This document shows positions 17,533 through 58,615 of a DNA stretch of 60,056 nucleotides, in pieces. The notes beneath the pieces are model-generated. The model searched no databases and had not been told where the DNA came from. It worked only from the letters and a program-made list of their open reading frames with translations. Origin of the DNA: a virus (taxonomy: Duplodnaviria > Caudoviricetes); the IMG/VR virus record IMGVR_UViG_3300033156_000984, positions 1-60,056 of that record. One strand, given 5' to 3'. Position numbers and translations under genes: made by a program. How positions within the stretch are numbered: the first letter of the stretch is position 1; each line of letters starts with the position of its first letter.

Positions 17533-20500
17533 ATGCTGAATTATTATATAGATGATTTCGAAGGGAGGTTCATTTATGTAGATATTTACACAAATAAATT
17601 AGGATGGAAACGCATTCGTATTTCAGAAGCACGAGAAGAAGTTCAAAAATACACAAGTGATGTATATGCTACTATACAACAATGGGAGAAATCTAAATTT
17701 GATGAAGGGGAGTTGGAATATACTCCCCTTTATTTTGATCTAGATGGAAAATTTGAAGAAACCTTAGAAGATGCAAAGAAGATAATTCAGTTCTTTGAAG
17801 AAACCTTAGAACTTAAACAACCAGCTTATCAAATTTTCTTCAGCGGATGTAAAGGATTTCATATAATAATCCATCAGAAAGTATTTGGAATTCTGCCATC
17901 TAATAATCTAACTTACATTCATAAGGATATCGCACAGTTTTTAACAGAAGTATTAAACTTAAAAACTTTAGATGAACGAGTTTATTCTAGAAGAAGACAA
18001 CTCAGAGTCTTAAATACAAAACATTCAAAATCAAAGCTTTATAAAGTAGAAATCTCAAGGGAAGAATTATTTGAGATAACTTCGTTTAATGATATCTCTG
18101 CTATTTCTTCAAAGCCTAGAAATCCTTTATTTGGTCTAGAAAGTTTTGAAATCTTATCACAATTTCCATTAGCATGTACTTGGTTTCAATCGTTTGTGAA
18201 AGCTTATCAAGAAAAAGAAAGATTAAGACGTTTCCAACCTATTGAAAAATTAGAATTTCAAGGTGAGCATCCTCCATGTGTTGAGCAATTATTAAATGAG
18301 CATATCCAGAAAGAGAATACTCGTAATATGGCAACGTTAGCATTAGCAACATACTTTAAAGATATAGGAACTTCTCCTGAAGAAACTTTAAGAATTTTAA
18401 TCGATTGGATTCTTAAAATTCCAAGACATTTAACTTCTAAGAAGACAGATCGTGAGTTAATTGCAGCAACTAAATCTGTTGTAGATACTGTATATAGATA
18501 CCCAGAAAGATATCATTTCATCTGTGCTGTAATGAAAAATCTAGGTATGGAATGTAATATTTTAAATTGTCCAGTAATAAAACATGAACAAAAACTTCAA
18601 CCTATTTCCTTATCCTTGAAAGATGCATTCTCTGCTGATTATGTAGGAATTCCTTCCTTAATTTCTATCATTCCTATTGGTCGTTCTGATACTAATTATG
18701 TATATCCTAAAAGTGTAAGATTTACTTGCCAAATGCAGAATTCACAGAAGACCTGTAGTATATGCCCAATGATGGATAAGGATGAATTAATAATTGAAGT
18801 TCCTCAAGAAAATATTGTCAGTTTAATTAAGATATCTGATTCAGGATTAGAGAAATATCTAAGAGGACTTGCAAGGATTCCTAATTGTAAATATGTTAAA
18901 GCTCAAATCTTAGAGTTCGGTGATGCAATTGAAATGGAAGCAGTTGAAAACATCAATCCTTTAAATGATTCGAGTTCATTATCATCTTCAGAAAGTATAG
19001 TACGTCCAATAATTTATCTTAATAAAACGTTCCCATACTCAGAAGAAATTATGTTACAAGGAAGAACTGTACGTAATCCTAAAGATCAATCTATAATCTA
19101 TATCGCTGATTCTGTAATTTCTACTTCATCAACAATCTCAAGCTTTGAGTTATCTGAAGAAGATATCGAAGCTTTAACTATTTTCCAAGCTGGCGGGAAT
19201 ATTAACAATATCCAGAAGAAACTAGATGAAATTTATGAAGATTTAGAAAACAATATAATTAATATCTATGAAAGACGAGATATGTTAATAGCGATTGATC
19301 TTATATTTCATACTCCATTATTCTTTAGATTAGATAACAGAAATCATAAAGGATGGGGGGAATTATTTATCTTAGGTGATACAGGATCAGGTAAAACTTC
19401 TGCGATAGAAGCATTCATAAAATTTTATGGATTAGGAGTAAGAGTATCAGGCGAATCTTCTAAACGTACAGGGTTAGCATGGACTTATTATAAGTATGGC
19501 GATCAATGGAGAATTAGATTTGGAATAATTCCAATGAATGATAGAAAATTAGTTGTGATAGATGAATTTTCTGGAATACCTGAAGAAGAATTTAAGAAAT
19601 TAACTGATATGAGGAGTTCAGGTATAGCAGATGCTAGAGGTGGAGTAGTTTCAGGTATTGCTTATGCAAGAACTAGATTAATCTATATTTCTAATCCCAA
19701 ATCAGGTTTATCATTAAATCATTATACTTTCCCAATATCTGCATTAAAAGAATTAATGCCAAGGAAAGAAGATATCAGAAGATTAGATTTAGTAATTGGT
19801 GCAAGAACTGAAGATGTTGATGTTGAAATTCTACATAGTTTTGAAAAGAAAGATGTTGAGCATAATTATGAAAACGAATTATGCAGGAAACTCATACTTT
19901 GGATATGGTCAAGAAACCCAGAACAGATTATAATTAAAGAAGAAGCGTTAAAGAAAGTTGAGACATGGGCAAGATATCTATCTAATAGATATTCAGTTGA
20001 TATACCTTTGTGTATGGCTTCAGATTTAAAACTAAAGATTATTAGACTTTCTTTAGGATTAGCAGGAAGATTATTTTCGACTGATGATGGAGAAAACTTA
20101 ATTCTTGAACCTGAACATGTTGAGTTTATTGGTACTTTCCTGAAGAAAATTTATGATTCTCCTTCATTAGATTTCTTAGGATATTCACATGCACATTTTG
20201 ATACACTTCAACCTAGCGAAGAGTTTTTGAAAGAAATAATCGGAGAGATTATCATAATACCGAATTCTATCCAAATGGCTAATTTCTTATTGATTACACC
20301 AAGATTTAATAAATCTACAATCTGCGAAATGCTTGGTTGGGATGGGGATGAGTTTAAAGAAGCAATGCGAAAGATGGCGAAATTTAAGCTAATTGAAGCT
20401 TCTAAAAATAGAGGATATCGTATTACACCATTTGGAATTTTGGTAATGAAAAGATTATTAGAAAAAGAAGATGAATTACAAAAAATTCAAGAACAAACAA

Positions 20501-20550
20501 AGTCAGAGATTGAAAGGAAGGGAGATGAAAAATGGTGGGAAGAAATTTAA
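17533..20550 (+). CDS. AEP primase(-polymerase) fused to an MCM-like AAA+ helicase
   Basis: AEP motifs LYFDLD and FSGCKGFH; Cys-rich primase C-domain (PPC...FIC...C..NC); Zn finger; Walker A GDTGSGKT, Walker B VIDEF, Arg finger IRRLD. Confidence 0.85.
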   Translation: MLNYYIDDFEGRFIYVDIYTNKLGWKRIRISEAREEVQKYTSDVYATIQQWEKSKFDEGELEYTPLYFDLDGKFEETLEDAKKIIQFFEETLELKQPAYQIFFSGCKGFHIIIHQKVFGILPSNNLTYIHKDIAQFLTEVLNLKTLDERVYSRRRQLRVLNTKHSKSKLYKVEISREELFEITSFNDISAISSKPRNPLFGLESFEILSQFPLACTWFQSFVKAYQEKERLRRFQPIEKLEFQGEHPPCVEQLLNEHIQKENTRNMATLALATYFKDIGTSPEETLRILIDWILKIPRHLTSKKTDRELIAATKSVVDTVYRYPERYHFICAVMKNLGMECNILNCPVIKHEQKLQPISLSLKDAFSADYVGIPSLISIIPIGRSDTNYVYPKSVRFTCQMQNSQKTCSICPMMDKDELIIEVPQENIVSLIKISDSGLEKYLRGLARIPNCKYVKAQILEFGDAIEMEAVENINPLNDSSSLSSSESIVRPIIYLNKTFPYSEEIMLQGRTVRNPKDQSIIYIADSVISTSSTISSFELSEEDIEALTIFQAGGNINNIQKKLDEIYEDLENNIINIYERRDMLIAIDLIFHTPLFFRLDNRNHKGWGELFILGDTGSGKTSAIEAFIKFYGLGVRVSGESSKRTGLAWTYYKYGDQWRIRFGIIPMNDRKLVVIDEFSGIPEEEFKKLTDMRSSGIADARGGVVSGIAYARTRLIYISNPKSGLSLNHYTFPISALKELMPRKEDIRRLDLVIGARTEDVDVEILHSFEKKDVEHNYENELCRKLILWIWSRNPEQIIIKEEALKKVETWARYLSNRYSVDIPLCMASDLKLKIIRLSLGLAGRLFSTDDGENLILEPEHVEFIGTFLKKIYDSPSLDFLGYSHAHFDTLQPSEEFLKEIIGEIIIIPNSIQMANFLLITPRFNKSTICEMLGWDGDEFKEAMRKMAKFKLIEASKNRGYRITPFGILVMKRLLEKEDELQKIQEQTKSEIERKGDEKWWEEI

Positions 20551-28015: not shown

Positions 28016-28328
28016 TCTTGAATCTCCTAAATATTAATCTTGGACGAATGTCTTTTATAATTCTAAATTTACCGAACCTATCAAGAATTTCAATTAAGTT
28101 ATTATCATATCCTTTACCAAACTGAATCTTACCTACTCGTAATAATATTACTATATCATCAACATGAAGCTGGTTTTCAATCTCATAATGCTTAATCAAT
28201 TCCCTTAAATCATTGATTGCATTAATCCATTTATAGCAATCCAGATCATTCAAGCTGAGGAAATCCTCCAAAATTTTTTGTATTTTTATGAGCAAGACAT
28301 CCATTTGGACCTCCGTAAGTTTTATCAC
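28008..28328 (-). CDS. Small tail protein, degenerate NlpC/P60 (gpK-like position)
   Basis: LDCY motif and position; the true start is probably the TTG just before NDLDCY, after GGAGG. Confidence 0.4.
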   Translation of the reverse strand: MIKLTEVQMDVLLIKIQKILEDFLSLNDLDCYKWINAINDLRELIKHYEIENQLHVDDIVILLRVGKIQFGKGYDNNLIEILDRFGKFRIIKDIRPRLIFRRFKNG

Positions 28329-50135: not shown

Positions 50136-51329
50136 TCATTCAGCTCCATCCTTTACTTCTTCAATCGGTAATTTTTCAATCTTATTACCAAGTATCATGA
50201 TATTCCTATCCCCATCCTCTACCTCAGGTAGATTAATACCATAAATCCTAGATAATATTCTACGTGATTCGTTAATTGTAATTGCACCATAACGTATTGC
50301 ATCAGATATACTACGTAAAATAATTTCATCCTCACCCGGTGATGAGACTAGGAATTTTAATGAATATTCTTCACCAAATGATGGTACTATCAACTGATTA
50401 GTTAATTTACGTGCTATAATACTTAATAATGGTTTAATAGTACGTTCAGTAGTTATCTTTACAGAGAACGGTAGGTTAGTTTTAGAAGTAGTTTCAGTTG
50501 CATAACCAAAATCACCGGGATTAATACCGAAATTCTGAAATACAATTGATTCAAGCTGTAATTTCACTTCTGGATATGATTTATAATCAAATTTACTAGC
50601 AAGCTCAATCCATGATACGTCATCTGAGGTTACACCACGCATGATAGGTATTTCTTGCGCTTCCTCAAGCTGTTGTTTTAGTTTTTCGTATTCTTCATCA
50701 TTTAAATAAGGTACTAACAAGATACCATCAGGTGTGGTACCACCTAAGTAATCCATTAAATTACGTGAAGCTAATACTAATGAAGCAACCTCAACCTCGA
50801 TTGTATTTAATATTGGAAATCCCCAAATTTTGTTGCTACGTGTATGATAAACCATATGAATAATTTCATTACGCTTAAATTTAATTTCCTTACCTTCAAT
50901 TTTTTGAATATATGATAGAATCCTGCCGTGGTCATCAACCTCAATCTCGAAATGATGCGGCGCACGTACCCATAGCTCTACAATTTCATGTCCTCTAGTA
51001 CGTACTATTTCAATGAATGAAATATCATATAAGACTAAATCGAATACGATTTTCTGTACTAGATCATTTAAATCTTCATAGTTTACATTGATTGCTTTCA
51101 ACCAATCTTCGATTTCTTTACATGCTGAAGGATCGGGTCCTGCAACAAACCATATAGCTTCACCAGCTAGTTTACTTAGGAAATCTACACATTGACGTAC
51201 TATAGCTACCTTCTCATAAATTGTTTCAATTAATGGGAATGATAATCTACCTGCGGGTTTTAATTTATTAGTAAATAATCTATCAGTAGTTACCGTACCT
51301 TTAGGCGTAGGCATTTTTATCCTAACCAC
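50136..51329 (-). CDS. Portal protein
   Basis: FIEIVR...IVELW, EIIH...WGFP, FGINP, GAITINESR, DGDR. Confidence 0.88.
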   Translation of the reverse strand: MVRIKMPTPKGTVTTDRLFTNKLKPAGRLSFPLIETIYEKVAIVRQCVDFLSKLAGEAIWFVAGPDPSACKEIEDWLKAINVNYEDLNDLVQKIVFDLVLYDISFIEIVRTRGHEIVELWVRAPHHFEIEVDDHGRILSYIQKIEGKEIKFKRNEIIHMVYHTRSNKIWGFPILNTIEVEVASLVLASRNLMDYLGGTTPDGILLVPYLNDEEYEKLKQQLEEAQEIPIMRGVTSDDVSWIELASKFDYKSYPEVKLQLESIVFQNFGINPGDFGYATETTSKTNLPFSVKITTERTIKPLLSIIARKLTNQLIVPSFGEEYSLKFLVSSPGEDEIILRSISDAIRYGAITINESRRILSRIYGINLPEVEDGDRNIMILGNKIEKLPIEEVKDGAE

Positions 51330-51338
51330 CTTTCTTCA

Positions 51339-52814
51339 TCATGTAAATACCTTAATTACCTTGGGTTTCATTTGGATTGTTTCAATCTTGATAGGTGGGC
51401 GAAATGTGCGTTCTGATATACCTTCAAGAGCATAGTATAACGCATCTACACAATCATCATGCTTTGAATGTGGGAAGGTTAATAATTGTGTAAACATTTT
51501 ATCCCAATCTATTTCCTCATTAAATATTATGTGTCCATTCTCAAATTTTGTCAAATATTTTGTAAACCTCATTACCTTGCTTTCTGATGCTATACTACCT
51601 TTAATATCGAAACCATCTTGTAATAACTGATCATGTAACATTTTGAAACCTGTTACTTCCATATTAATGAATTTTGTATTCCATTTATGCTCAAGATTAA
51701 TTAAATGTGATTTAATCTGTTCATAACTAAATTTGCCTGCTAAATAATCAAGTATATATACCTTCTCAGGGTAATCTGGATTAATACCTACTACAACGAA
51801 ACATGTTTCATCAGGTCCTGAACCTGAAGCTGGATCTATGCCTATACCAGTTAACCAGGTTGATCTATCGAAATCAGTTCTATCTGTTATCAACCAGTAT
51901 GGCGAGATGATATTACCTTCCAGCTGTGAGAAATCCATCTGGTATTCAAGATTAAATCTTAAAGTACCCATGATACGTTTCCTACGTAGTAATTCTTCCG
52001 TTGGGAAGAATGATTCCCAAATTGAGTGTGGTTTACCTTCTGAATCGTAGTATAAAGCTTTAATTTTTAATGTTTTCATTAGTTTGTTTTTCATAATGTA
52101 AGCATGTAAATCTTCGGGTGAATGTGTTGTACCATTTACATGAATTCTACCACCTGCTAGCATCATTGGTAAGATTTCGTTAATGAATGTTTCAATTGTA
52201 CGTACAGCTGCTATACCTCTGCAATTATTTTTATCAACCAAATCATCGCATACTATTAAATCAACATGCCTTGCTCTGATGGTTGATTCCAAACCCAATG
52301 CTGTTAATGTTGGTGTATCCAATATTTTAGTTCGTTTTTTAACAGTGAACCTTAACTGATCCCATTGTAAATCTCGTGAGTACCATTCACCAAAAAATGA
52401 AATAAATACTGGATCTTGGAAATGTAGTTTCATTACGTTAGGTTGTAGTTTAGCTTGCGCTAATGTTTTTGATACAACTACTAATCTGATATCTGGATTT
52501 TTTAATATATTCCATAATACAAAAGCTCTATTACAAATCCAGCTTTTACCAAATCCTCTCGGTCCTAAGACTAATGTTTCTTTATTATCTAATTGAAATT
52601 TGAACATTTTCCTATGAAATGGTTGCAAATCCATCCTCAATACTATCATTATGAACATTTCCCATAGATTTTCTGATAGGATTAATTCGCCTGCTTCAAG
52701 ATATAATTCTCGTTCTATCAACTGGCATACCTTATCTTCAGCTTTACGTTTACGAGCTAAATTCACCATTTTACCTAGAACTACTCCCTCATTGGATACA
52801 TTAATACCTCCCAA
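51339..52814 (-). CDS. terL: Terminase large subunit
   Basis: Walker A GPRGFGKS, Walker B LIVCDD, nuclease GIDPA...HDDCVDA. Confidence 0.93.
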   Translation of the reverse strand: MGGINVSNEGVVLGKMVNLARKRKAEDKVCQLIERELYLEAGELILSENLWEMFIMIVLRMDLQPFHRKMFKFQLDNKETLVLGPRGFGKSWICNRAFVLWNILKNPDIRLVVVSKTLAQAKLQPNVMKLHFQDPVFISFFGEWYSRDLQWDQLRFTVKKRTKILDTPTLTALGLESTIRARHVDLIVCDDLVDKNNCRGIAAVRTIETFINEILPMMLAGGRIHVNGTTHSPEDLHAYIMKNKLMKTLKIKALYYDSEGKPHSIWESFFPTEELLRRKRIMGTLRFNLEYQMDFSQLEGNIISPYWLITDRTDFDRSTWLTGIGIDPASGSGPDETCFVVVGINPDYPEKVYILDYLAGKFSYEQIKSHLINLEHKWNTKFINMEVTGFKMLHDQLLQDGFDIKGSIASESKVMRFTKYLTKFENGHIIFNEEIDWDKMFTQLLTFPHSKHDDCVDALYYALEGISERTFRPPIKIETIQMKPKVIKVFT

Positions 52815-53134
52815 CCTGTGCCTCTACCATCTGATTTAATTAGTTCATAGCTCCATGAATTGATTGGATTGCCTTTTGAATCGTTTTCGTACCATCGCAT
52901 TAGGATATCATATTCGTTTGAAGTAATTAGATATATAACCCGATCACTGCAATGGAATTCATCTAATCCAATTATATTATACCTCTTATTTAAGGATTCT
53001 ATCACATTAATTGCATTTAATTTTTGTTCTAATGTTAGGTTATCTAATTGCATGATTCGTGGTTCTACTAAATTAACTGCACAGGATTGTAGAAATATTA
53101 ATAATATTAAACTACTATGGCGCAGGAGCTTCAT
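52781..53134 (-). CDS. Putative lipoprotein
   Basis: Basic N-terminus, hydrophobic core, lipobox LQSC. Confidence 0.65.
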   Translation of the reverse strand: MKLLRHSSLILLIFLQSCAVNLVEPRIMQLDNLTLEQKLNAINVIESLNKRYNIIGLDEFHCSDRVIYLITSNEYDILMRWYENDSKGNPINSWSYELIKSDGRGTGWEVLMYPMRE

Positions 53135-53465
53135 CCTTACCTAGATTATTTAGGTATTCAATCATAGCGTTCCATGTTGATAAACCTAATTCAAAACCTA
53201 GAATACCTTGAAGTACTAATAATCCGTTTGATACTAAGACCATAGGTGATTCTGTTTCGTCATACATCATGCTGAAATAAATTGCATAGCTGCGGTTATC
53301 ATCCTCGGTTATGATATCAGCTTTGAATTGAAGTGTGATATCTTGGTATGGGATATAGAAGAACACTGAATCATCATAAATATCTACATCTACCTTCAAA
53401 GCGGATGGATTATAGACTACTATCTCATGATTACTTATTACATAATCACGCATTGGTTCTAACAC
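53115..53465 (-). CDS. Hypothetical acidic protein
   Basis: SD AAGGAGGTG upstream. Confidence 0.7.
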   Translation of the reverse strand: MLEPMRDYVISNHEIVVYNPSALKVDVDIYDDSVFFYIPYQDITLQFKADIITEDDNRSYAIYFSMMYDETESPMVLVSNGLLVLQGILGFELGLSTWNAMIEYLNNLGKDEAPAP

Positions 53466-53489
53466 CTCCTTATTTTATTTTAGAACATT

Positions 53490-53721
53490 AAAGGAAGGAG
53501 GATGCTAAATCACAGGCAAGGTGGTATATGTGTGGTGATGCACTTTAATTTATTCCTGAAGAAGGGAGGGATGTGGAAGGCAAGTAAGCGAGCGAAAGGC
53601 AGGCGGCATACACCACACATATACTTTTGAGCGATATTCAGTTGTCCGAGTGAGGGAATGTGGGTTGGAGGTGATGGGCATATTCCCTCATCCTTTGAAT
53701 TTCTAGCATCCTCCTTCCTTT
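53490..53721. ncRNA. Candidate structured non-coding RNA (three-stem junction)
   Basis: 18-bp closing stem 53490-53507/53704-53721; 14-bp stem 53524-53537/53611-53624; 12-bp stem 53651-53662/53679-53690. Confidence 0.55.
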
Positions 53722-53725
53722 TCAT

Positions 53726-54982
53726 TTATTTATTGTGGAATAATCCAAATTCCTGTTCTAATCGTTTATTAGCGATTTCTATATAATCTGGATTTAATTC
53801 TATGCCAATCCAATTTCTACCTAATCGTTGTGCTACTATAGCTACTGTACCTGAACCCATGAATGGATCAAGTACAATACCAGCTTCCCAGCCTGCATTG
53901 CAACCACAATCAGTCCAGCCGATGCATTTACGTATCGCTACTGCATGTAAGGTACTATCATATGTCCCATGTGTTATAAATTCGGTATCAGCAGTATAAG
54001 GTTTGGGTTCGCTTTGTTTAATTACTTTAGTTCTTTCAATTATTCGTTCACGTGGTTTACCACATTTCTTGCAAACCCATCTTGGACAGCTTGATTTAAT
54101 CATTGGTTCAATTAATCTAGGTGGAAAGGTTGCAAAATGCGCATCCTTGAAAGGTTGTACTGGTATTGTCCATAAATCGCCTGGGTTTTTGCCGATGATG
54201 AATTCTTCTGAATTATGTCCGTTCAGTAGTTCTATCATAGTATCCGATTCATATTCGACCCTTACAGCATCTAGATCAAACCAGTATTTTTTATTTTTAA
54301 CCAGCATAAATATGGGTTCATATGCTCTGGTGAACCTATCCTTCACGCTGTCCGGTAAATGGTTTGGTTTATACCAAATTACTATGTTACGTAATATCCA
54401 GTCTTGCTCGTCGATCATGCGTAATATTAACCTATAATTTTGTAGCGCTAAGCATTTTGGTTTTAGTTTCGATTGCGGGGAAGGTTTGTATCTATATAAT
54501 TCAGATCTTGAAATGCTTGCAGTCTCACGCCAATCATATCTGCCGCAGTTGCTGCCACCATAACAATCACCATGATTCCAGTACATTACTCCTGTATCCT
54601 TTAATACACGTTTCAATTCAGCGGTTATTTGTAATAGATGATCAATATACATTTCTAATGTTGGTTCTAATCCTAATTGACCATACCATGCACCACATTT
54701 TTTACAGAATGCAAATCGTTGCGTGAAATGTAGGTGATCCTTAAAGTTGCCTATGCTGTTTTTTGTACCACCACGATATCGCATTCCTTCCTGGAATTGC
54801 CATTCGTGTTCACAGTTCGGATCACCATCCCATACCTTGAAAGTGCTTTCCCCATAGTACCTTAAACCCCAGTACGGAGGTGAGGTTATTATGCAATCTA
54901 CAAAATTGTCTGGCATTTGTTTTAGTACCTCTAATGCATCACCTTGATGAATCTTGTTTAGCCAGTCTGACTTTGTCTTCAT
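53726..54982 (-). CDS. DNA methyltransferase, beta class (N4-C/N6-A), with Cys-rich insertions
   Basis: Motif IV TSPPY precedes motif I DPFMGSGT; HFATFP; CEHEW/CKKC and CKKC/CGC inserts. Confidence 0.92.
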   Translation of the reverse strand: MKTKSDWLNKIHQGDALEVLKQMPDNFVDCIITSPPYWGLRYYGESTFKVWDGDPNCEHEWQFQEGMRYRGGTKNSIGNFKDHLHFTQRFAFCKKCGAWYGQLGLEPTLEMYIDHLLQITAELKRVLKDTGVMYWNHGDCYGGSNCGRYDWRETASISRSELYRYKPSPQSKLKPKCLALQNYRLILRMIDEQDWILRNIVIWYKPNHLPDSVKDRFTRAYEPIFMLVKNKKYWFDLDAVRVEYESDTMIELLNGHNSEEFIIGKNPGDLWTIPVQPFKDAHFATFPPRLIEPMIKSSCPRWVCKKCGKPRERIIERTKVIKQSEPKPYTADTEFITHGTYDSTLHAVAIRKCIGWTDCGCNAGWEAGIVLDPFMGSGTVAIVAQRLGRNWIGIELNPDYIEIANKRLEQEFGLFHNK

Positions 54983-56783: not shown

Positions 56784-56812
56784 ATTTAATAATAAGATGA
56801 TTGGGATGTCAA
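56784..56812 (-). promoter_or_regulatory. Leftward sigma70-type promoter
   Basis: TTGACA on the - strand (56812-56807) preceded by a T-tract; weaker -10 (TTAAAT at 17 nt). Confidence 0.5.
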
Positions 56813-57129
56813 GAAAAAAATGATGAAAAGAAGAAATTTTTTTAAGGAAGTGGTGTGGATATTGGGGTTGGGTGCTGAGGTTGGGTGCTGAGTGCGTTGA
56901 ATTGGATTTTTAGGAAAAATTTGTGGCAAGTCTAGTGCCACGCCCAGCAGGGTTTGATTTTTTCTGATAGGGTTTAAATTCAATGACGCCAAAATATTCT
57001 TATTAAGATAAAAATTCATCTATACCAAAAAATTATCACTATGACAATAATTCTGCTAAAATTAAGTTTTTCAAGATATGCTAAATTGTGGTGGTGAACT
57101 GGATTATCCGGCAATAGTGCATTTTTTTA

Positions 57130-57159
57130 TTGACAAATAGGGTGGTAGCGTGGTATAGT
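57130..57159 (+). promoter_or_regulatory. Rightward sigma70-type promoter
   Basis: TTGACA, 18-nt spacer, TATAGT with extended TGn; T-tract upstream. Confidence 0.72.
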
Positions 57160-57167
57160 ATATACAG

Positions 57168-57195
57168 GGCAAGGCAAGGCAAGGCAAGGCAAGGC
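57168..57195 (+). repeat. (GGCAA)5 GGC tandem repeat in the 5' leader
   Basis: Read directly; its complement CTTGCCTTGCCTTGCC lies at 57449-57464. Confidence 0.9.
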
Positions 57196-57219
57196 TAACA
57201 CAAAAAGGGGGGTGTAAAT

Positions 57220-57438
57220 ATGATAAGAGATAAGATCAAGCAGGTAAAAGAGGATAAGGATAATGTAAAAAAGATATGGAAAACACTACTTCAAATAGCA
57301 AGAGATCAAGGGTATAAAAATAATCCAGATATTGCCGCGTTTATGCTTCAAATAAGAGCAACCCTTACCAAAAAAGAGATTGTCGATTGGATAAAAGCAA
57401 ATCTTCAGCAAGGATCAGCACCGGATAACATAATATAA
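57220..57438 (+). CDS. Hypothetical protein, first gene of the + arm
   Basis: SD GGGGGTG. Confidence 0.72.
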   Translation: MIRDKIKQVKEDKDNVKKIWKTLLQIARDQGYKNNPDIAAFMLQIRATLTKKEIVDWIKANLQQGSAPDNII

Positions 57439-57494
57439 AAACAAAAATCTTGCCTTGCCTTGCCTCAAAAATTAAAAAAAGGAGGTAATTAAAA

Positions 57495-57964: not shown

Positions 57965-58460
57965 GCCCTATAATTTTAGTAAAATTAAATAATTTTTTGG
58001 TGATATTATGATTAAAAAAATATTTTCCCAAAATTGCAAGTATAATACAAAATATACTAAAAATTGCGCTTGTCAGATTGCGCTATATAAAGAGATCTCA
58101 CCGCACCCTATATATCTATATAGGGTGCGTTTTTTAATTTTAAAAAATAATCCTAAATCCTTGCAACAGGATTTAGGATTTTCAAAAAAATATTTTTATA
58201 ATAGCGTTAAAATAGAAAATCCCAAATTTAGCGCTATTATAAATAATTTTTCTATTGACGCTAAAATAGTATATCCTATTTTAGCGCTAACACAAAAAAT
58301 TTTCTATATAAATCCTAAAGATAAATATCCTTATTTAGAATTTATAAAGAAAATTTTCTTAATAAATCCTAAAGAGGATTTCTCCTTTTTAGGATATTCT
58401 AAAATCTTAACAATAGTTAGGATTGTTAATAATTTTTGGATTGTTAGGAAAATTATACTT

Positions 58461-58514
58461 GTTAGGATTTTTAAGATTTTTAGGATTGTTGGGATTGTTA
58501 GGATTGTTGGGATA
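58461..58514. repeat. Six degenerate 9-bp tandem repeats (consensus GTTAGGATT)
   Basis: gttaggatt tttaagatt tttaggatt gttgggatt gttaggatt gttgggata. Confidence 0.85.
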
Positions 58515-58615
58515 ATTAGAGATTTAAAATATATCCTCCTTAACTGGCTTCAAAAAATTGCAAAAAATTTTCTGATTTTAGAAAAGAAAAAAAATCACAA
58601 AAGGAGGGATTTAAA

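Follow-up and report, generated by a model that had tools for sequence, protein, structure and literature searches.

Two kinds of RNA-level site are familiar from phage operons: RNase III sites, such as those between the cistrons of T7, and Rho-dependent terminators, such as the nutR-tR1 region of lambda with its rut sites. RNase III needs about two turns of uninterrupted double-stranded RNA. Correia, RUP and ERIC are the bacterial comparators for MITEs (miniature inverted-repeat transposable elements). In the icaR mRNA of Staphylococcus aureus, long-range pairing between the 5' and 3' untranslated regions joins the Shine-Dalgarno (SD) sequence to a UCCCCUG anti-SD motif and creates an RNase III substrate (PMC3868564). 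Here we analyze a 232-nt, non-coding, self-folding element at positions 53490-53721 of the IMG/VR virus record IMGVR_UViG_3300033156_000984; the window analyzed is the whole 60,056-base record, rated 100% complete. The element is real, statistically solid and without a known family. We tentatively read it as an RNA module that marks a boundary within this phage's leftward transcript and acts in cis, via processing or termination, a possible function of which we infer every mechanistic step.

Structurally, the element consists of a closing stem and two internal stems. A sequence-only reading had placed a three-stem element at exactly this interval, and folding confirms it there, with stems of 18, 15+4 and 13 bp where that reading gave 18, 14+4 and 12. 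The 16-nt loop carrying GGAGGTGAT, which reads ATCACCTCC on the minus strand, is likewise present as described. As RNA, the plus strand folds to -96.1 kcal/mol against -62.9 +/- 4.5 for shuffles (z -7.45) and the minus strand to -80.9 kcal/mol against -46.7 +/- 4.4 (z -7.74); as single-stranded DNA, with DNA parameters, the fold reaches -45.2 kcal/mol (z -6.45). In each of the three cases 0 of 200 shuffles was as good, and the minus-strand fold with flanks included retains a z of -5.43. By our own estimate, 60 kb should contain at most about 0.001 perfect inverted repeats of 18 bp within 500 nt. The closing helix extends to 20 contiguous pairs in both the minimum free energy and the centroid structures of the minus strand, and the left arm of the closing repeat contains an SD-like AAGGAGG plus an ATG, readable on either strand. 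Compositionally, the element is the GC-richer island that had been noted, with a GC content of 0.47 and a GC skew of +0.34 at 53500-53699 against a GC content of 0.30-0.39 in the flanks, and its excess of G over C runs opposite to theirs. The earlier remark that G.U pairs weakly favor the plus strand also holds: the minimum free energy structure has 10 such pairs on the plus strand and 2 on the minus strand, and since the sole one internal to a main helix is G53660.T53681, the strand preference is weak. We also considered, and rejected, full-length palindromy of the element: its two-fold symmetry is confined to the terminal repeats, with 141 of 500 shuffles aligning equally well.

Genomic neighborhood analysis places the element in the 260-nt spacer between a DNA methyltransferase gene and an open reading frame (ORF) of 116 aa, the gap after the methyltransferase and upstream of the packaging genes in which it had originally been located. 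The genome is densely packed with genes, most same-strand gaps being shorter than 85 nt, and this spacer is among its largest; the other large same-strand gap, 28016-28245, is unstructured (z 0.32). The element starts 4 nt past the methyltransferase stop codon and stops 3 nt short of a small hairpin, in the loop of which the SD of the 116-aa ORF is displayed unpaired. Two small ORFs (116 and 117 aa) separate the element from TerL. Both flanking genes lie on the minus strand, so the element would need no promoter of its own. A sigma-70-like TTGAAA-17-TATAAT sequence (11/12 match) is located at 55036-55008(-), 25 nt upstream of the methyltransferase start, and no hairpin-plus-U terminator was found on the minus strand between the methyltransferase and the late genes; together, the upstream promoter match and the lack of such a terminator make another kind of barrier plausible.

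In the boundary function that we tentatively propose, the 260-nt untranslated spacer of the leftward polycistronic transcript would fold into a closed three-way junction, whose 20-bp closing helix would join an SD-like arm to an anti-SD-like arm. These 20 contiguous pairs reach the length of uninterrupted duplex that RNase III needs, and the helix could thus serve as its substrate. The minus-strand RNA tract 53521-53598, mostly the 64-nt loop of stem 2, contains 28 C and 7 G in 78 nt; lying past the methyltransferase stop codon, it is C-rich, G-poor, largely unpaired and untranslated over the roughly 70-80 nt of a rut-type site, and its single-stranded loop would be the kind of site on which Rho loads. 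Cleavage or Rho-dependent termination would then uncouple late-gene expression from transcription begun upstream, while self-closure of the junction would keep the methyltransferase stop codon and the ribosome-binding site of the next gene near each other and undisturbed. Among the distinct C-rich, G-poor regions of the 36-kb leftward unit (21000-57019), the tract ranks second (rank 16 of 7189 windows). This ranking, together with the excess of the word AGGCAAG common to the element and the early leader, is an addition to the sequence-only reading.

The most C-rich, G-poor tract of the same leftward unit (33 C and 3 G in the minus-strand RNA) is at 56846-56923. It lies within a 77-aa minus-strand 'ORF' (56786-57019) with an atypical codon score of -0.192, an interval that also holds two tandem copies of GGTTGGGTGCTGAG and a terminator-like hairpin at 56941-56923(-). 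Judged by these features, 56786-57019 is probably a regulated leader of about 240 nt for the leftward unit rather than a gene.

Table 1. Coordinates of the element, its substructures, the words and reading frames within it, and the neighboring features (SD, Shine-Dalgarno; ORF, open reading frame).
Feature	Position	Strand	Description
Closing stem, left arm	53490-53507		AAAGGAAGGAGGATGCTA; 18/18 Watson-Crick with 53704-53721
Closing stem, right arm	53704-53721		Separated by 4 nt from the stop codon of the methyltransferase (53726-53728)
Stem 2	53523-53625		15 bp (53523-53537 with 53611-53625; outermost pair G.T) + 4 bp (53538-53541 with 53606-53609)
Stem 2 loop	53542-53605		64 nt; purine-rich on the plus strand, C/U-rich on the minus-strand RNA
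Stem 3	53650-53662 with 53679-53691		13 bp, including two G.T (one terminal, one internal); 16-nt loop
Stem 3 loop motif	53667-53675		GGAGGTGAT on the plus strand; ATCACCTCC on the minus strand
AGGCAAG, copy 1	53514-53520	+	Junction region, mostly unpaired in both folds
AGGCAAG, copy 2	53578-53584	+	Within the 64-nt loop of stem 2
71-aa ORF	53513-53725	-	In frame with and abutting the methyltransferase stop (TAAATG); judged non-coding
42-aa ORF	53502-53630	+	SD and AUG within the closing helix
Methyltransferase gene	53726-54982	-	5' neighbor in the leftward direction; N6/N4 DNA methyltransferase, PF01555 1.4e-44, phrog_67
Downstream gene	53115-53471	-	116-aa ORF without family; probable ATG 53453; SD AAGGAGGTG at 53471-53463
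TerL	51339-52814	-	
Portal	50136-51329	-	
Early leader bracket	57166-57465	+	(GGCAA)5 at the transcript 5' end pairs with (TTGCC)3 at 57449-57465

Set beside the described systems, the locus shares part of the logic of icaR. Both have a long-range helix within one transcript that joins an SD-like purine tract to a CCUCC-type anti-SD tract over a length suited to RNase III (PMC3868564). The phage studied here also closes its first early gene in a 5'-3' helix. In icaR the helix controls the SD of the very gene that it encloses; in the element no credible gene lies within the helix, and the next gene has its SD outside, in an unpaired state. The T7 and lambda sites resemble the locus in a different way, as structured untranslated spacers between cistrons at an early/late boundary, with a C-rich, G-poor tract beside stable hairpins. 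They differ from it in that there is no sequence or Rfam relation and that they do not usually take the form of a three-way junction with a perfect helix of 18-20 bp; nor was an antiterminator protein identified.

Several observations weigh against a boundary function at the RNA level. The three main helices are almost perfectly Watson-Crick, a state more usual in a palindrome that is young or DNA-level than in an RNA of long standing; such G.U pairs as there are favor the plus strand, not the mRNA strand; and the purine skew runs counter to the coding strand around it, as expected if the element were inserted or transcribed the other way. Since no homologue was found, there is no covariation by which to weigh RNA against DNA explanations. 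The promoter and terminator scans are consensus matches only, with 9 found against 11.8 +/- 4.1 in shuffles, and the presence of Rho and RNase III in the host is assumed. The near-perfect helices, the plus-strand G.U bias and the opposite skew keep three other explanations alive: a plus-strand small RNA, a MITE and a DNA-level site.

The first of these would be an independent small RNA on the plus strand, antisense to the operon and extending from the left arm to the U-rich tract past the right arm, which might gate the late operon as a cis-antisense RNA, imitate the (GGCAA)n early leader or serve as an SD-rich decoy. The G-rich skew of the plus strand, the presentation of GGAGGTGAT in a loop, the occurrence of TTTTCATTTATTTATT after the right arm, and the two AGGCAAG copies, both in mostly unpaired regions and in the same sense as in the early leader RNA, all fit such a transcript. 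So does its more stable fold (-96.1 against -80.9 kcal/mol, with 10 G.U pairs against 2), but the two strands have equal z-scores, and the energy gap thus stems from composition. No promoter-like site of at least 9/12 lies upstream on the plus strand; the nearest is at 53177-53204, and by eye there is just a 7/12 TTGGTT-17-TATTTT. Within the element, no sigma-70-like promoter was found on either strand and no intrinsic terminator on the minus strand. The sole terminator-like match of the plus strand is a 6-bp sub-hairpin at 53673-53692, a count of 1 against 1.6 +/- 1.3 in shuffles and so no excess. With no Rfam small-RNA family matched either, we consider this origin unlikely.

A DNA-level site, whether a late promoter with regulator repeats, a cos or pac region upstream of a small terminase, or an invertible switch, seems quite improbable. 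The place directly upstream of the packaging module is classical for cos sites and late promoters, and the element has its AGGCAAG words in common with the (GGCAA)5 repeat, which resembles an operator and lies just downstream of the early promoter. The element also resembles invertons in being an intergenic segment of 100-800 bp between perfect inverted repeats upstream of an operon. Its hairpins, nested or serial, have 16, 64 and 196 nt between the arms of the three, however, which is not a dimer-binding geometry, and an inverton has no need of internal hairpins. No promoter match lies inside the element, and the complete phage has no match to the resolvase/invertase family PF00239 or the tyrosine recombinase family PF00589 across the 60-kb record, although control genomes did match; a host enzyme might act instead.

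Alternatively, the element may be MITE-like or otherwise foreign palindromic DNA that was inserted in a short spacer and tolerated through self-folding, with no function for the phage, which we regard as somewhat unlikely. Its 232 bp between 18-bp perfect terminal inverted repeats, its intergenic place, its stable fold and the lack of any encoded transposase match bacterial and viral MITEs, and such elements are known from viral contigs (PMC11602168). The GC content of 0.47 and the skew are foreign to the flanks, the helices are near-perfectly Watson-Crick, and removal of the element would leave a compact junction of stop codon, 7 nt and SD hairpin. Unlike MITEs, however, the element has no convincing target-site duplication abutting it: 1 nt (T) matches, and CAT/CAT is obtained only after adding a mismatched T per end, a 3-nt flank match near chance level for AT-rich DNA. 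It also lacks overall palindromy, its symmetry being limited to the arms. The phage has a single copy, and no second one was found in the collections searched, though the host may have others. The sequence-only reading would have withdrawn its RNA interpretation for a multi-copy MITE with target-site duplications, and nothing searched showed one. In addition, the MITE-Tracker screen of a large survey found MITEs in just 0.01% of the viral sequences (PMC11602168). A foreign origin further leaves unexplained the word that the element has in common with the regulatory region of the phage's own early leader. Were it a MITE present in one copy, the element would mark the phage's host.

This word, AGGCAAG, links the element to the start of early transcription. 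Both copies noted by the sequence-only reading, at 53514 and 53578, are present, and the word is indeed the same as that in the (GGCAA)5 repeat of the early leader. Genome-wide, AGGCAAG occurs 10 times: 7 copies fall in the leader bracket, 2 in the element and 1 elsewhere. At least two copies within 232 nt arose in just 5 of 20,000 shuffles of the element, and other words common to the element and the genome are at chance level. Because the word is common to the element and the early leader, a phage-intrinsic function is favored over foreign junk. The early promoter is a near-consensus TTGACA-18-TATAGT preceded by TG (57130-57159), and the (GGCAA)5/(TTGCC)3 pairing forms a 5'-3' helix of 17-18 bp that brackets the first early gene, a 72-aa ORF at 57220-57438.

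Long-range helices recur elsewhere in this genome. A scan for perfect inverted repeats of at least 13 bp with arms 60-500 nt apart returned, beyond the element's own repeats, two other long ones. One is the (GGCAA)5/(TTGCC)3 bracket; the other is an 18-bp perfect repeat, 645-662 with 1050-1067, which closes a second module (423 nt, multi-hairpin and very AT-rich) within the interval 640-1072. This module includes (TCAA)6 flanked by (AT)n, and it folds with z-scores of -4.86 and -4.68, its minus strand reaching -104 kcal/mol against -56.6 for the plus strand. Words resembling CCCTATATATT occur in 5 copies at 20-nt spacing (971 and 991; 1276, 1296 and 1316) and once more as a perfect 12-bp palindromic hairpin at 58102-58129; from their arrangement they look like iterons or operators of some DNA-binding protein.

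The minus strand of the element can also be paired with the early leader. The predicted duplex has -31.9 kcal/mol, against -35.2 for the leader's own cis partner, and was equaled by 5 of 1000 shuffles. Setting aside the trivial antisense, the cis partner and the terminator hairpin, this strand is the best leader partner among 2064 genome windows. A trans-acting 'anti-leader' can be imagined on this basis, in which an excised element RNA of about 190 nt would shut off early genes as late transcription rises. The module would be cut from the leftward (middle/late) transcript at the 20-bp closing helix and freed as a stable RNA, its single-stranded CUUGCC-containing regions would pair with the (GGCAA)5 of the early-operon mRNA, and this pairing would compete with the mRNA's own protective 5'-3' helix, timing the early-to-late switch. 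We think such a role very doubtful.

That the element instead codes for protein, either through its 71-aa minus-strand ORF or through a 42-aa plus-strand ORF in the manner of a type I toxin mRNA, is barely credible. The 71-codon frame is open, adjoins the methyltransferase stop, shares its frame and was recorded by a gene caller; an open frame of this kind arises in only 3.7% of shuffles for a given frame and in 13% for any of the six. Its codon score of -0.159 is nevertheless below all 142 in-frame 71-codon windows of phage genes (mean 0.373, sd 0.128, minimum 0.034), and its ATG is not preceded by an SD. Neither ORF of the element belongs to a Pfam or PHROG family. Searched against 5.8 billion clusters, the 71-aa ORF had only itself as a relative; against 1.84 billion representatives there were otherwise just three long proteins, matched in several short stretches, and the one of these that was inspected is repetitive and of low complexity, so that no credible homologue was obtained. 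On the plus strand, pairing between the 5' and 3' ends of a unit of about 230 nt buries the SD and the AUG from which a small, basic-tailed ORF would start, an arrangement that resembles the hok- and AapA1-type mRNAs. Unlike the toxins of those systems, the 42-aa peptide is too weakly hydrophobic: its hydrophobic patch spans only 13 residues, and with a Kyte-Doolittle average of about 0.4 over 19 residues, by our own sum, it has no transmembrane helix. Its codon usage is also atypical (codon score -0.14), and neither a promoter match nor an antitoxin RNA was identified.

Searches for families and relatives place the element on its own. The earlier statement that it is not a known RNA family is borne out by Rfam: none of the 4227 families matched 53000-54200 at its gathering threshold, and the 4 matches with E up to 10 were at chance level, the best scoring 16.9 bits against a threshold of 44. 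The lone match over the element itself was to a mammalian long non-coding RNA model (15.2 bits against a threshold of 55). We take the set searched to include phi29 pRNA, 6S, CsrB/Rsm, Y RNA, ribozymes and riboswitches. A phi29-type packaging RNA was also considered, and is ruled out by the lack of an Rfam match together with the classical TerL and portal of the phage. Among the RNA roles that the sequence-only reading had proposed, the late-operon leader or boundary fits the context best, and the decoy and the packaging RNA gained no specific support.

The collection of homologues that the same reading had called for returned no relative of the element. By blastn there was no match among 50,697 phage or 72,556 plasmid records. 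The exact 18-mer of the terminal repeat had 0 matches in viral contigs, 8 in genome contigs and 17 in metagenome contigs, all of them single, unpaired chance matches, with similarity ending at no more than 26 nt; internal 19-mer and 23-mer probes had 0 matches in viral contigs. Across 80 loci from distant TerL relatives, blastn and nhmmer gave nothing better than an E value of 1.7. A single-sequence covariance model, run on these 80 loci and the window as well as on 21 loci of methyltransferase relatives, recovered the element itself only, its other matches being short unrelated hairpins (for example, L039:1089-1137). The element was found in 0 of 401 sampled genomes of one bacterial phylum.

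Although these loci hold no similar element, they do inform on the position. We folded two groups of distant TerL relatives. In both, a terminator hairpin lies in the gap immediately preceding (upstream of) the packaging genes; by our reading of the folds, one group adds a promoter-like site to it, the other a short ORF. These terminator hairpins indicate that the gap is a transcription-unit boundary in that lineage. In L036 (4734-4924) and L034 (4888-5030), a strong terminator hairpin lies between thyX and the packaging genes and is followed by an apparent short hydrophobic ORF with its own SD, below the 50-aa ORF cut-off. Among relatives of the methyltransferase (at most 51% identity), the next gene follows directly, without such a spacer.

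The phage that carries the element is an orphan, with identities of 26-30% to its best TerL relatives. Its TerL has only 4 homologues, at 26-28% identity, among 5.8 billion clusters; a single-protein TerL scan of IMG/VR for closer relatives was empty, and the best matches among cultured phages are about 22% identical. The record carries a 114-nt direct terminal repeat and no tRNA gene was found in its 60 kb. Its genes form a rightward block from about 57220, with an MCM-primase, an SNF2 helicase and a MoxR/VWA pair, and a leftward block from about 57019 down to 21000, in which small ORFs, a helix-turn-helix protein, the DNA methyltransferase, the element, the two small ORFs, TerL, the portal and tail genes follow one another. 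GGAGGTG-type ribosome-binding sites are found throughout the genome; these and the near-consensus early promoter suggest a bacterial and probably Gram-positive-like host. The 1005-aa replication protein (17533-20550) joins an MCM P-loop domain to a primase-type domain, and its nearest Atlas clusters are viral MCM-primase fusions. With GC content allowed for, self-complementarity in the genome peaks at 58000-58530 (residual z as low as -6.5), where palindromes and tandem 9-bp GGATTGTTA-type repeats lie within a nominal 203-aa ORF; this region is a candidate replication origin.

The value of the finding is limited, as it concerns one sequence from an uncultured orphan phage. What seems most worth following is how the element relates to the repeat of the early leader, and that long-range helices recur in this phage. 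If the element is indeed a boundary module, this phage would set its late genes apart from an early methylase with a promoter of its own, and would do so with no classical hairpin terminator, using instead a closed RNA junction sealed by SD/anti-SD pairing. Taken with the (GGCAA)n bracket, this would suggest that the timing of the phage is controlled largely through long-range RNA helices, and the element would offer a compact, transferable insulator design.

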